Assembly (NCBI GenBank): GCA_947646415.1 | Contig: CANSGN010000001.1 | Location: 3,945 to 67,944, forward strand | Length of the DNA: 64,000 nt | Reading direction: 5' to 3' | Source of the DNA: an uncultured Clostridia bacterium | Lineage (GTDB): Bacteria > Bacillota > Clostridia > Christensenellales > UBA3700 | Program-made: the position numbers and the translations under genes | Notes under the pieces: generated by a model | Databases searched by the model: none | What the model was told of the DNA's origin: nothing | What the model saw: the letters and a program-made list of their open reading frames with translations, nothing else | Shown here: positions 39,596-45,465 of the stretch, in pieces | Layout: the number at the start of each line of letters is the position of its first letter | Numbering within the stretch: the first letter of the stretch is position 1

Positions 39596-42500
39596 ATGGC
39601 AAAGATTATTAAAAGAGTTGGGATAGTATTTTTTGTGCTAGTAATTTCCTTTCTATTAATTGTAAGCTTGTCATTGTATTCAAAAACGGGGATAAATGAA
39701 AATACTACGTTAAAGACGAATACAGAAATAAACGATTTTGAACAACATCCTACAATAGACGAGGAAGTATTGTTGAATGGAAAAAACTGTGTAGAACAAG
39801 CGAAAATATGGGCAGATATAATAACCAAGTCATTAAAAGGTAAACATGTTTTAGCAACGCTTACTGAAGATTGGAGTGCCGATAATAATTCTTTTGCGGA
39901 TGATGGAATTGGCTTTAGTAATGGCAGTATAGTTGTAGAAAAGGGAACTATTATAACACTTGATTTGAATGGTCATAAGATAGACAGAAAATTAACCGAT
40001 GCCATTGCCAACGGCAGTGCTTTGGTTGTAAGAGGCGAATTGACTTTGCAAGATAGCAAATATAACTCAAATGAAATTTTGGATGCATATAATGCAAATT
40101 ATAATGAAGATTTGCATTTATTAGTACAAGGCGGCATTACGGGTGGAAATTCTGAAAACAGTGGCGGTGGTATTGATATCGACGGCGGTACTTTTGTTAT
40201 GAACGGCGGTATGATTTACGGAAACAATAATACTAACCAGGAAGAAAGCTGTGGCGGTGGAGGAATTTACGCTTATAATGGTGCTGAAATTATAATCAAC
40301 GATGGTTTGATAACAAAAAATAAATCTGTTTCCGGTGGTGGAATATATGCAAAGCAATTTGCAATGTTTGAAATTCATGGTGGATTAATTTTTAAAAATG
40401 AAGTAAGTGGTGCTTGTGGAGGAATAGGTGCCAATAGTTCCACTTATTTAAATATGACGGGAGGGATTATTTCAAAAAATACATCTAATAGTATTGGGGG
40501 CATCGGTTTTGTTAGCGATGGAACAGGTTTTTTCAATTTGTATGGCGGAAATATTGAATATAACGTCGTATATACTAATGGAGGTGGAGGAGTTTTTGTA
40601 AATAACGCAAATTTTAATATGTATAATGGGGTTATTCGCAAAAATAAAGCGAGAAAATCTCACGGAGGAGGATGTTATTTTTCCGATTCTAATATTAAAA
40701 TTTACGGCGGAGAAATAAGTGAAAATGAAGCTGGATATTATAATACTAATGGATTGGTATTTGAAGGAGGAGGAATTTTTAATAACGTAAATGTAAACTT
40801 TGAGATGTATGACGGCAAAATAACAAAAAATGTAAGCGGCGATTTAGGTGGAGGTATAGCTTTTTATAACAAGACTTGCACAGGTACTATTTACGGAGGT
40901 AAAATAACGGAAAATGTTTCAACTAGTGGGTGTGGAATTTTATCAAGTAGTGCTAATCTTACATTAAAAGGTGGTTTAATTACAAATAATAAAAAGTTTG
41001 ATCAAGGTGCAGGGTATGGGTATGGAATTTATTTCACCGGTGAAATAAATTTGTATGCAGGAGTACAAATATATGGAAATAGAAGTAGTGTTTCTGAACA
41101 AAATTTAATGATAAGAAATGGTTCAGAAATTCTCGACAGACTAAATATAAAAGAAAATTTAATGAATAATGGAAAAACTACTTATATAGGCATTTCACCA
41201 GCAGTTTCTTATGCTGAAACTATAATAACGACCAATTATTCAGAGACAAATACAGAACCACCATCTAAATTTTTCTTCAGTGATAATGGGTATGGAATAC
41301 ATTTAAAAGACAATGAGGCTTGTATCAATAAGAGTGAAAAACCGACATTTACTACTATAAATTGGAAATGGGGTAATCAAGAAAACGAAAATTCCAACGG
41401 AAGCAATGTGGAACTACCTTATATCGATGGGGGATATACTATTTCTGCAAGTGTACCTATCAAAAACAGCAGCGGAGAAAATTCATTTAATATATCGCAA
41501 CCTGGTACATATTCTTTTTATACCGAAGGAGACAGTTTATACACAAACCCTACATTTATGGTAACAATAGTAAACAATAAAGTTGTTAAACCTAATTTTA
41601 TAAAAACCGAAAAATTATTATTTAACGGAAAAACACAAGAATATATTCCATCAAGCGGTTATGATAGTGACAAAATGGTAATATTCGGTAACAAACAAAC
41701 AAAAATAGGCGCTTACAATGCTACTATAAGATTGCAATGGGGGAAGACATGGGAAGACGGAACAACTGACGACATAAAAGTTAATTATCAAATAATTTAT
41801 CCTGGATTGGTAATTAAGCAGGATTCAAAATATGATTATTGGTTTGTTGAGGACAATAGCCGAAAAAATTATGATAAAGAGTATCTGCATAATTATGACG
41901 ATAACGAATTAAATAAGGTAGATGGTATATCTCGATTTATTCTTGGAAATATCATACCAAATACAACTATAACTGAATTTTTGGATAATTTGCAAAGTGA
42001 CAAAAATTTGATTAAAATATATGATAAATTCAATAATTTAGTTTATAATGGAATGATAAACGAAACGTTAGACAAAAATATGCTGGTTGCTACAGGTTTT
42101 AAGTTAGAACTTTACAAATACGAAACGGATTTGTTGCCGTATGACACAATCTACCTATCCGTATTAGGGGATATAAACGGCGATGGTATGATAAACGCAA
42201 GTGACGTATCCTACTTAAGACAAGTAGCAAATGACAGTACATTGCTAGAAAGTATGTCATTGGAAAGACAGTTGGCTTGTATGATAAACAACAAAGGCGG
42301 AATAACCGAAGTAGATAGCGAGATATTGAGGAACTATATTGGCAAGGAAATAGATTTAGATAAATTTATGGAAAGCGAAACAGAAAATACAAATACAGGC
42401 TACATATATTTAACATTGGATAGGGACAATATGCTACGCAAAACGAGTGAAAGCAAAACCAATGTAATAGGTAATATATCAGTAAATACAAGTGTAGAAA

Positions 42501-43251: not shown

Positions 43252-45465
43252 ATGGCAAAGATTATTAAAAGAGTTGGAATAGTATTTTTTGTGCTAGTAA
43301 TTTCCTTTCTATTAATATTAGGTTGCGTGTTCGCTGTAAATGTTGTCGAGCATGATAATTTTGCATCCTTAAATTCCGAAAACGTTGAGCAGACGGGTGT
43401 TGCCGATGAGGAATTTGTTCCCGATTTTATATTAAGCGGAACTAATGCACAAATAGAAAGTCAATGGAATACAATTATGCAGGCTGCATCAACAGATGCT
43501 ACGAGAAAAGAAAGAAAAATCAGATTAGACAGTGATTGGATTGCTACAACTACAGATGCTACACATGCATTTGGTACAGGAGTGGGATTTTATACAGGTG
43601 GTGCTATTGCTATACTTGCGCATACAAAGATAGTTTTCGATTTGAACGGACATACTATTGACAGAAAATTTGACGGAAAAAGTCAAGCCCAAACATTAGG
43701 TTGTTGTTTTGTAGTTGCAGGGGAATTGACACTTTTGGACAGTGCATACGATGCACAAGTTTTTGAGGACATATATATTAATGCAAAAGGTGACAAAAAT
43801 GTTTTGCAAAGGAAGATTGATAAAATTCGCGGTAATTACGGACGTATTAGTGGCGGTTGTAATACTACAAGCGGAGGCGGAATATATGTAGGTGCAAATG
43901 CTATTTTAACTATGTATGGAGGTATTATTAGCAATAACTATGCAGGATATGGCGGAGGCGTTACTTTGGATACCAATGCGTCTTTTAATATGTATGGCGG
44001 GGTTATATGCAATAATACAAATCTTGTCGATGGTGGTGGCATTTGTATTAGTAATGCAACATTTAATATGTATGATGGATTGGTTTTAAACAATGTAGCC
44101 CAAAGCTATGGAGGAGGAATTGCAGTTTCCGACTCATTAGCCGAAGTAACAAGTAAGTTTAATATGTATGACGGTATTGTTGCTTACAATACTTCATTAT
44201 ATGGCGGTGGTATTGCGTTTAGAGGTAAATCTGTGGGCGTGATAAAAAATGCAGATATTTCATATAATTATTCTTCCGGCAACTCGGCAGGGGTAGTTGT
44301 TTGGGATGACAATACAAAGGCCGATTTTTACGATTGTCGTATTACTAACAATTTATCCTATCATACTTCAGGAATAAACGGCGGTGCAGGTGTTTTAACA
44401 AATTCGGTAATAAATATATATAATTCGGAAATAACAGATAATACTTTTATTAATGGTATTAACTCCGAAATAGGTTATGGCGGCGGTGTGTACGTTAATG
44501 CCAATGGTAAAGCCAAATTGGATGGTGTAATAATAGCAAGAAATAATGCGTATTCGGATATTAATGATGGTTTACATTCGGCAGCTGGAGGAGTTGGTTT
44601 TGCTGCAACTGCACAGTTGCAATTAGGTAGTAATGTGCAAATATATGATAACACCGCTCACGGAATCAAGTCCGATTTAAGGTTGGAAGAAGGACAAAAG
44701 ATTAATGTAAGCAATATGGGCACAAATTCTTACATAGGAATAAAAACGGCAGAAGATTATGGAATAGCAAACTTTACTGTAGGTTATGGTGCAAATAACG
44801 GCAATCCTCCTACTCAATACTTTTTTAATAATGATTGCGACAAAATGGCTGTTTTGAACAATCAAGAGATATATTTTGAAAAGATTTTGGCAAGTGACGA
44901 ATATGATTTTATATTTTTTGAAAACGGCGTGCGTAAAAATTATAAGGAAAATAATTTGATTCACGCAGTAAATGACTATGCAAAAAGCAAAACCGTAAAT
45001 GGCGGTAAATTGATTTTGGGAAATATAAAACCTAATACAAGTGTAAACAGCTTTATTTCAAAAATCAATTTGAGTGCAAATCGCATTAAGTTGTTTGATA
45101 GCCACGGCAACCTTATTTACGATAAAGGTAATAGCGTAAGCGGGATAGATACAGCAACTTATGCAGATGACAAAATGTATTCCGTAGGTACGGGATGGTT
45201 ATTGGAAACATACGGCGAAAATAATGTAAAAATAGAAAATATAACTTTATCCGTATTGGGTGACGTAAACGGGGACGGCAGGATAAGTGCAAGTGACGTT
45301 TCATATCTAAGACAAATAGCAAATGATAGTGCTTTGTTTGATAGTTTGAGCGTAGAGAAAAAGCTTGCAAGCATTGTGTTGAATAAAGGTAGCGTAACTA
45401 CGGCAGATGCGGAAATCATAAGAAATGTACTTGGTAAACTACTTGAAATAGAATTGTTCTTTTAA
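43252..45465 (+). CDS. secreted GGxIY beta-helix repeat protein with one C-terminal dockerin-like module
   Basis: The first 66 nt are identical to the 39596 gene apart from one mismatch. GGGIY/GGGV/GGGIA repeats. C-terminus LGDVNGDGRISASDVSYLRQIANDS...NKGSVTTADAEII. Confidence 0.8.
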   Translation: MAKIIKRVGIVFFVLVISFLLILGCVFAVNVVEHDNFASLNSENVEQTGVADEEFVPDFILSGTNAQIESQWNTIMQAASTDATRKERKIRLDSDWIATTTDATHAFGTGVGFYTGGAIAILAHTKIVFDLNGHTIDRKFDGKSQAQTLGCCFVVAGELTLLDSAYDAQVFEDIYINAKGDKNVLQRKIDKIRGNYGRISGGCNTTSGGGIYVGANAILTMYGGIISNNYAGYGGGVTLDTNASFNMYGGVICNNTNLVDGGGICISNATFNMYDGLVLNNVAQSYGGGIAVSDSLAEVTSKFNMYDGIVAYNTSLYGGGIAFRGKSVGVIKNADISYNYSSGNSAGVVVWDDNTKADFYDCRITNNLSYHTSGINGGAGVLTNSVINIYNSEITDNTFINGINSEIGYGGGVYVNANGKAKLDGVIIARNNAYSDINDGLHSAAGGVGFAATAQLQLGSNVQIYDNTAHGIKSDLRLEEGQKINVSNMGTNSYIGIKTAEDYGIANFTVGYGANNGNPPTQYFFNNDCDKMAVLNNQEIYFEKILASDEYDFIFFENGVRKNYKENNLIHAVNDYAKSKTVNGGKLILGNIKPNTSVNSFISKINLSANRIKLFDSHGNLIYDKGNSVSGIDTATYADDKMYSVGTGWLLETYGENNVKIENITLSVLGDVNGDGRISASDVSYLRQIANDSALFDSLSVEKKLASIVLNKGSVTTADAEIIRNVLGKLLEIELFF

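Follow-up and report, generated by a model that had tools for sequence, protein, structure and literature searches.

Invertible promoters precede a mosaic family of dockerin-tailed, very probably phase-variable surface proteins in an uncultured mouse-gut Christensenellaceae bacterium

Phase variation by promoter inversion at multiple loci is a familiar principle in bacteria. In Mycoplasma penetrans, the mpl (P35) family comprises 38 lipoprotein genes spread over several loci, most of them with their own adjacent invertible promoter, and tyrosine recombinases encoded nearby are the suspected invertases, according to passages of PMC2268961 that cite Horino 2003. In Bacteroides fragilis, where one recombinase serves many dispersed promoters, passages of two sources name Mpi and, for outer surface proteins, the Tsr tyrosine recombinases (PMC2268961; 10.1101/2022.10.31.514637). 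The principle is also that of Escherichia coli fimS, whose promoter lies in a short invertible element flipped by the tyrosine recombinases FimB and FimE (10.1101/356865), and in Clostridioides difficile the tyrosine recombinase RecV flips the switches of flgB and of the strain-variable cwpV (PMC2784873; PMC3080850; PMC5386303). This article concerns four genes, designated g1 to g4, located in a 64,000-nucleotide stretch of contig CANSGN010000001.1 (assembly GCA_947646415.1, positions 3,945 to 67,944), hereafter the window, each of which is preceded by a promoter-bearing DNA segment bounded by inverted repeats, hereafter the switch. Matching public records give the host as an uncultured mouse-gut Christensenellaceae bacterium, the Christensenellaceae being mostly uncultured gut bacteria.

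Very probably, g1 to g4 belong to a large, phase-variable surface-protein family, in which each gene has its own invertible promoter and the protein bodies are shuffled. The window has a G+C content of ~33% and its plus strand carries the majority of genes. An initial annotation, made from the sequence alone, had described four genes of shared architecture; all four were confirmed at the starts that it gave, on the plus strand, and their products align end to end, g2, g3, and g4 being 31-40% identical to g1. The list of open reading frames (ORFs) has g2 starting at 39569, and its start is taken as 39596 because the ATG at that position sits behind a GGAGG ribosome-binding site common to all four genes. 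The description of a family of four stands for the paralogs of the window and falls short for the family as a whole, which has more than 20 members per genome. In an exact-protein look-up, g1, g4, and the form of g2 with 1086 amino acids (aa) were absent from public records. The genes and their parts are as follows.

5137..8097, plus strand: g1, 986 aa; anchor, predicted beta-helix, Ig-like modules, X module, and one dockerin (~7888-8067)
39596..42856, plus strand: g2, 1086 aa; anchor, predicted beta-helix, middle segment, and X module with dockerin (~42164-42340)
~42530-42853, plus strand: second X module of g2, with a dockerin-like module
43252..45465, plus strand: g3, 737 aa; anchor, predicted beta-helix (~43414-44901), X module, and one dockerin (~45256-45426)
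57177..60764, plus strand: g4, 1195 aa; anchor, predicted beta-helix, longer middle segment, and X module with dockerin (~60087-60251)
~60441-60761, plus strand: second dockerin-like module of g4

Each gene is preceded by a 5' cassette of ~420 bp that consists of a terminator hairpin, a leader, the invertible segment, and a GGAGG linker with the first ~22 codons, those of the signal peptide. Nucleotide identity among the four loci is 80-90% and confined to about -348 to +65/+74 around the ATG; the tail region at the other end of the genes has a weaker identity of 66-78%. The elements of the cassettes are listed here in order of position.

4801..4829, plus strand: terminator hairpin of g1 followed by a T run, read from the sequence
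4830-4945: leader of g1
4946..5108: switch of g1; sites 4946-4966 and 5088-5108, 121-bp type A interior, promoter on the minus strand (OFF)
39260..39288, plus strand: terminator hairpin of g2, from the terminator scan, with 12 pairs and then a T run; supported by covariation
39289-39404, plus strand: leader of g2
39405..39567: switch of g2; sites 39405-39425 and 39547-39567, type A interior 39426-39546
39438..39467, minus strand: invertible promoter of g2, TTGACA-18-TATAAT, 12/12 matches to consensus, pointing away from g2 (OFF)
42916..42944, plus strand: terminator hairpin of g3, from the terminator scan; supported by covariation
42945-43060: leader of g3
43061..43223: switch of g3; sites 43061-43081 and 43203-43223, type B interior (43082-43202)
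43094..43123, minus strand: invertible promoter of g3, TTGACA-18-TAAAAT, 11/12 matches to consensus, OFF in the window
56870-56985: leader of g4
56986..57148: switch of g4; sites 56986-57006 and 57128-57148, type B interior, promoter on the minus strand (OFF)

The repeat that bounds the switches, TGTACATAGATATACTTATTC, occurs in eight copies in the window, which form four inverted pairs with a constant spacing of 142 bp, where 0.00 would be expected by chance. The 21-nt exact cores belong to repeats of 27 bp in full, and the same arrangement is found at ~50 loci outside the window. The full repeat, GTACAT(A/G)GAATAAGTATATCTATGTAC, consists of two 9-bp inverted arms with a 9-bp asymmetric core between them; judged from its sequence, this arm-core-arm repeat is lox-like and has the layout of a tyrosine-recombinase site. 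The interior measures 121 bp in 47 of 48 switches. Across 45 unique switches TTGACA is invariant and TA(T/A)AAT conserved, so that the interior is best conserved at the -35 and -10 hexamers, and much of the remaining interior is divergent. Type A interiors (TTGACA-18-TATAAT; g1 and g2) and type B interiors (TTGACA-18-TAAAAT; g3 and g4) are distinguished by the -10 hexamer and by most of the upstream promoter sequence, and could be subject to different regulators or be of unequal strength. Both are about equally frequent (~11 type A, ~12 type B) in MGBC162486, a related genome introduced below.

The terminator hairpin shows compensatory changes in 8 of its 11 pairs among 30 distinct cassette copies from two species. 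The leader that follows, of ~115 bp, is near-invariant in the window and better conserved than the switch interior; it has TGTAAAG motifs at both ends, and its core, TGCAATAAT.CTATCAAAAATCGGG, is conserved in the second species as well. A search of the whole window with Rfam at gathering thresholds gave no hit, and the conserved leader therefore corresponds to no known riboswitch or RNA. Both strands of the leader RNA fold better than shuffled sequences (z -4.6 and -3.8), an excess that the terminator and the palindromic sites account for.

Inversion of the switch is observed, and is thus beyond inference. All four promoters of the window lie on the minus strand and face away from their genes (OFF). 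In a junction census of all DNA examined, 72 junctions have the -10 side of the promoter at the leader and 67 have its far side at the gene, which is again the OFF state. The opposite state occurs in L075, a 17.4-kb ENA contig (ERZ14425208) in which g2 is 99.9% and g3 100% identical to the window genes. The flanks of its g3 switch are identical to those of the window over 204 nt upstream and 300 nt downstream, and its 163-bp repeat-to-repeat segment matches that of the window at 157/163 positions as the reverse complement, against 93/163 in direct orientation; the promoter thus faces g3 (ON). The proposal of the initial annotation that these genes are under switch control is thereby borne out at g3, whose switch is seen in both orientations between identical flanks. 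An assembly artefact in L075 is unlikely, because L004, from another sample, holds nearly the same interior allele in the OFF state (1 difference in ~64 nt, same repeat variant). The promoter is also ON in L054, which belongs to MGBC121002, a metagenome-assembled genome (MAG), and faces a 563-aa gene. Both orientations of the switch therefore occur naturally, with OFF predominating at almost every locus. The generic site pattern matched 18 stretches in the JGI metagenomes, all complete switches being OFF, and contigs L076-L080 are OFF throughout or broken inside the switch.

The family extends well beyond the window. In a scan of one genome per species, the site was found in 52 genome stretches, with ~23 switch loci in MGBC162486 (uncultured Christensenellaceae bacterium), ~26 in MGBC121002 (uncultured Christensenella sp.), a few each in MGBC100798, MGBC120187, and MGBC145026 (titled Christensenella or Eubacteriales), and a single site-bearing stretch in L044, from a MAG recorded as Candidatus Gastranaerophilaceae. 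The window shares 92-97% nucleotide identity with flanks and orthologs in MGBC162486, and is therefore assigned to the same or a sister species. The same tail ends all of the 26 complete downstream ORFs of at least 200 aa that were listed, so invertible promoter and tail go together. Among these ORFs is a second switch-controlled family of ~564 aa, with the N-terminus MKNLK... and the domains DUF6273 and Dockerin_1, which shares both the inverted sites and the tail; its loci are L028:1001-2692(+), L039, L042, L029, and L054, the last being one of the two ON cases. Public contigs very often begin or end inside a switch or at a repeat, as do L001, L003, L004, L005, L007, L011, L032, L075, and L080. 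In these genomes the cassettes break assemblies systematically, which explains the breaks at family loci.

Recombination among the loci was the second proposal of the initial annotation, which had read three conflicting relationships from the four genes. All three were reproduced, and the relationships are incongruent across segments. The switch interiors group g1 with g2 and g3 with g4; the first 66 nt of the coding sequence differ at 2 positions between g2 and g3; and the tails pair g1 with g3 (43% identity in the X module and 74% in the first dockerin) and g2 with g4 (43% and 69%). The bodies are 25-40% identical. Linker variants occur with both interior types, all four combinations being present across loci. 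Comparison of orthologous loci between strains shows the replaced segments directly. The g1 locus and L034 are 95% identical over 4 kb, with a type A interior in the window and a type B interior in L034, the difference being restricted to the interior and a short linker. At the g2 locus the cassette is 92% identical to that of L035, and identity is 90.5% over the last ~780 nt of the gene together with the spacer and the cassette that come next; the body in between, ~2.4 kb, has no detectable nucleotide similarity. At g4, similarity with L023 extends across the cassette as far as +84 and stops there. Because these strain comparisons show bodies replaced between kept ends, the conserved ends appear to act as homology arms around replaceable bodies.

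The proteins themselves begin with a K/R-rich stretch followed by a hydrophobic helix, a segment read as a membrane or lipid anchor; the helix ends in LGC in g1, g3, and g4, which could be a lipobox, and g2 is without Cys at this place. Much of the domain reading in the initial annotation was upheld. The motif LDLNGH(T/K)IDRK, which it had assigned to all four, is present in g1 to g3 and has the counterpart LDINGKTINRN in g4, and GGGI...N coil repeats are common to the four. The body is predicted to be a right-handed parallel beta-helix built of Pmp-like GGxI...N coils. The AlphaFold model of g3, made from an alignment of 39 sequences, is confident (pLDDT 83.8, pTM 0.80) and consists, in order, of an N-terminal helix, short-strand coils, the small beta module named X here (~550-668), and a helical tail of low confidence; the coils, at residues ~60-500, have a pLDDT mostly >90 and strands that repeat every 20-25 residues. 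Its top PDB matches by Foldseek are nearly all parallel beta-helix proteins, among them Rhombotarget A, AlgE4, AlgE6, the adhesin PfbA, DFA-IIIase, tailspikes, and the SRRP of L. reuteri. Among 39 homologs of g3, 8 match Chlam_PMP (PF02415; best E 4e-9) and 4 match Beta_helix. The model of g1 (pLDDT 76) adds all-beta modules at residues ~545-800, which match tandem Ig-like arrays (Foldseek, best E 5.5e-5), as had been suspected; the middle segment is present in g1, g2, and g4 and was modelled in g1 only. The likeness to autotransporters did not hold: the C-terminus is an X module with a helical dockerin, and without a C-terminal beta-barrel g1 to g4 are not autotransporters.

The dockerin-like tails were likewise recognised correctly. 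Pfam Dockerin_1 (PF00404) matches g1, g2, and g4 with 26.6, 33.3, and 35.0 bits, g3 with 22.6 bits, just under the cut-off of 22.9, and 33 of the 39 homologs of g3 (E <= 0.01). One tail module is present in g1 and g3 and two in g2 and g4; the second modules carry a canonical DLTGDGRITAAD loop, and their Dockerin_1 scores of 16.9 (g2) and 18.9 bits (g4) are below threshold, the match spanning the first loop only. All six dockerin-type loops of the window lie inside g1 to g4. The first loop of the tail is canonical (DVNGDGRISASD); the second calcium loop of each dockerin, xNKGxxTxxD, is degenerate, acidic residues being lost at positions 1, 3, and 5. The closest solved sequence is the dockerin of Clostridium thermocellum Xyn10B (2ccl_B, E 0.005). 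Pfam found no family besides Dockerin_1 in g1 to g4 and NCBIfam no match; neither in these genes, as the initial annotation had noted, nor in the 39 homologs did they reveal a carbohydrate-active family. Its remark that no cohesin-bearing partner is visible also stands, within an insensitive search: a phmmer search of 610 kb of related DNA reached E 0.09 at best, with two approximate CipA cohesin sequences as queries, and Pfam recognised no cohesin in eight large neighbouring proteins.

Taken together, these features suggest the following mode of action. In the OFF state, the sigma-70-type promoter would fire away from the gene into the leader, which would be transcribed antisense, and the terminator; after inversion by a tyrosine recombinase it would lie ~60 nt upstream of the start codon, giving each gene independent ON/OFF expression. 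The terminator of the cassette would insulate the gene from upstream read-through and probably also end the OFF-state transcript. With most loci OFF in most cells, each cell would display a small, changing subset of the repertoire. The 5' cassette and the 3' tail, as homology arms, would allow swaps of interiors and of whole bodies among loci and strains, with mosaics as the outcome. The products would be anchored or secreted, with the Ig-like modules serving as spacers in the longer members. That the bodies diverge rapidly and are swapped suggests that the proteins are adhesins or exposed antigens. Since many members already possess an anchor at the N-terminus, the tail is not necessarily what holds the protein on the cell, and it may recruit a partner.

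All loci are probably flipped by a single tyrosine recombinase encoded outside the window. A 309-aa protein from the minus strand of L009 in MGBC162486 (L009:6476-7405) is the candidate, with matches to Phage_integrase (E 1e-26) and Phage_int_SAM_3 (E 5e-13). Its gene lies two genes from a switch, with a metallophosphoesterase gene between; the order recombinase, phosphoesterase, switch recurs in MGBC121002, where the recombinase is very similar, and no other recombinase type was found near switches in the DNA examined for this. The switch beside it (L009:4349-4511) has no family gene behind it, and the next gene, 164 nt off, encodes a RarA/MgsA-type AAA+ ATPase (L009:2887-4185, minus strand).

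A protein family of ~1150 aa is encoded directly upstream of several cassettes in the related genomes, and it is possible that this membrane protein is the partner or scaffold of the dockerin tails. Its members combine a signal sequence and a large ectodomain with a single transmembrane segment close to the C-terminus and a cytoplasmic tail that is conserved; one matches DUF6273 below the cut-off (23.0 vs. 23.5 bits), and a profile of the family found no match among PDB sequences. The members are encoded at these positions.

L051:2754-6227, minus strand: ~1150-aa family member
L032:433-3855, minus strand: ~1150-aa family member
L031:59-3481, plus strand: ~1150-aa family member
L007:373-3858, minus strand: ~1150-aa family member
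L055:2-2500, plus strand: ~1150-aa family member

A more elaborate and doubtful picture would be that of a plug-in surface display, in which ~25 invertible promoters are served by one recombinase, the dockerin-tailed modules compete for a common anchor, for which the ~1150-aa protein would be the type I membrane candidate, bodies are swapped via the conserved ends, and OFF-state leader RNA helps limit the number of ON loci.

Several observations weigh against a phase-variable surface family. ORF scans found no recombinase encoded in the window, and the nomination of the 309-aa tyrosine recombinase as the candidate that flips the switches comes from synteny only. L075 and L054 are the sole two ON exceptions in the junction census, and a search of the JGI metagenomes with an ON-specific junction pattern returned 0 matches; the switching frequency may be low. 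The leader contains a conserved extended -10-like element, TGCAATAAT, that faces the gene, and a second, fixed promoter is conceivable there. On the side of the proteins, g1 to g4 themselves match no Pmp or beta-helix Pfam model (E <= 0.01), the Foldseek E-values of the g3 helix are weak (0.05 at best), the dockerin regions of the g1 and g3 models are poorly confident (pLDDT ~40-55), and Pfam found no cohesin among the window ORFs scanned.

Some of these points would be at home in other explanations. The cassettes could be a static dispersed repeat, similar to a miniature inverted-repeat transposable element (MITE) or a promoter-terminator element, that undergoes no regulated switching, the inverted public copy being an assembly artefact; the cassettes do occur more than 20 times per genome at 80-98% identity, public contigs often break inside them, and nearly all copies have one orientation. 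This is nevertheless highly improbable, for a fixed promoter cassette would make no sense with a promoter that, in the prevailing state, points away from its gene. The repeats, at 27 bp, are shorter than the final k-mers commonly used by assemblers of this kind, so that the orientation of contigs should rest on junction-spanning reads, and the near-identity of the ON allele of L075 with the OFF allele of L004 from another sample, like the second ON case in an independent MAG (L054), is hard to square with an artefact. Nor would a static repeat need an interior of fixed length (121 bp) despite ~30-40% sequence divergence, or the arm-core-arm layout of a tyrosine-recombinase target at each end. 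It is also decidedly improbable that control is of the cwpV type, with a fixed leader promoter at TGCAATAAT driving the gene and the segment blocking or permitting read-through by a terminator or by promoter collision. The extended -10-like element is conserved in both species and the interior is less well conserved than the leader, as such control would have it; within the interior, however, conservation is highest at the -35 and -10 hexamers of its own promoter, and this promoter faces the gene in both ON cases. Terminator scans of both strands of the segment revealed no terminator-like hairpin, and an internal terminator of the cwpV type was rejected.

The cargo could be read differently as well, namely as cellulosome-like enzymes, that is, secreted beta-helix lyases, epimerases, or hydrolases docked on a cohesin scaffold, with phase variation tuning a repertoire that degrades glycans of the host or the diet. 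The Dockerin_1 tails would fit, as would the fold, which AlgE epimerases, DFA-IIIase, pectate lyases, and tailspikes share and which is represented by such proteins among the top structure matches. We consider this improbable given that those matches are weak (E >= 0.05) and include the adhesins PfbA and SRRP, that the coil motif is of the Pmp type, as reflected in the PF02415 matches of the homologs, that carbohydrate-active families are missing from the genes and their 39 homologs alike, and that no cohesin was seen, in the insensitive search described. Bodies that are 25-40% identical and swapped wholesale fit diversifying surface proteins rather than conserved active sites. A phase-variable family of surface proteins thus remains the preferred reading.

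Several other features of the window were recorded. Between 26470 and 33117 lie three tandem paralogous genes for small lipoproteins (167-171 aa, MKKIFLK...FVGC; ~27% G+C), and behind them a gene for a 1654-aa protein with six Flg_new (Listeria-Bacteroides) repeats, whose C-terminal part starts with CIAEGSMITLADGS and has a Hint- or intein-like look, the NCBIfam hint being weak (E 0.0096). An agr-like quorum-sensing set is found just upstream of g2 and g3 (33862-36948), with a LytTR response regulator, a GHKL histidine kinase, AgrB, and a 119-aa ORF read as helix-turn-helix-like. Directly upstream of the g2 cassette, 37301-39145 encodes a 614-aa lipoprotein with a GLUG motif; this flank is without counterpart at the matching locus of MGBC162486, as L035 instead encodes a Flg_new-repeat protein of at least 1360 aa. 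ORFs of the GH31 family are located at 25054-26166 and at 60935-62461 on the minus strand, the former (370 aa) matching just part of the catalytic-domain model, and it may be a fragment.

The ~25 family genes, each with a switch, imply that these bacteria invest heavily in surface variation, and the genome of MGBC162486 appears small, since its switch-bearing contigs total only ~1.4 Mb. The scale resembles that of Bacteroides capsules and Mycoplasma lipoproteins, with a dockerin-tailed protein as the cargo, which links dockerin modules to phase variation. The defined 27-bp site and the candidate recombinase make the proposal directly testable, and the switches are ready markers for read-level ON/OFF profiling of mouse-gut metagenomes. 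To our knowledge, surface variation has not been described in Christensenellaceae; literature searches and a recent survey of invertible promoters brought up no description of such switches in this family and no paper linking dockerins to phase variation. New, as far as found, are therefore the host group, the 27-bp site, the self-contained cassette, the dockerin-tailed cargo, and the shuffling of bodies between conserved arms.

Set against the known systems, the tails resemble the X-dockerin tails of cellulosomal proteins (C. thermocellum, Ruminococcus flavefaciens) in having a C-terminal small beta module followed by a dockerin with a canonical first loop, DxNxDGxIxxxD, and depart from them in the degenerate second loop, in the N-terminal anchor or LGC of many members, and in that no cohesin or carbohydrate-active module was found. 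The fimS switch, a 314-bp element with 9-bp repeats, is a single locus with adjacent dedicated recombinases, whereas here ~25 loci have a common site and are presumably served by a recombinase encoded at a distance. C. difficile cwpV is likewise a Firmicute surface-protein gene behind a tyrosine-recombinase switch; its promoter, however, lies outside the switch and is subject to termination control, and the few switches of C. difficile each have different repeats, whereas the present switches enclose the promoter and show no internal terminator. With B. fragilis, another gut commensal, the family has in common the consensus repeats shared by dispersed invertible promoters and, as predicted here, the combinatorial surface variation. 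The system of that organism, one of the Bacteroidetes, has fewer loci, its Mpi is a serine recombinase, and it controls mostly capsular polysaccharide operons, with no dockerin cargo. The closest analogue would appear to be the mpl family of M. penetrans, also a multigene surface family, in which most genes are under independent ON/OFF control by invertible promoters of their own. Here, in another organism and with unrelated proteins, the site is a 27-bp lox-like one, the cassette includes a terminator and a leader, and the cargo consists of predicted beta-helix bodies with dockerin tails and conserved ends that support body swaps.

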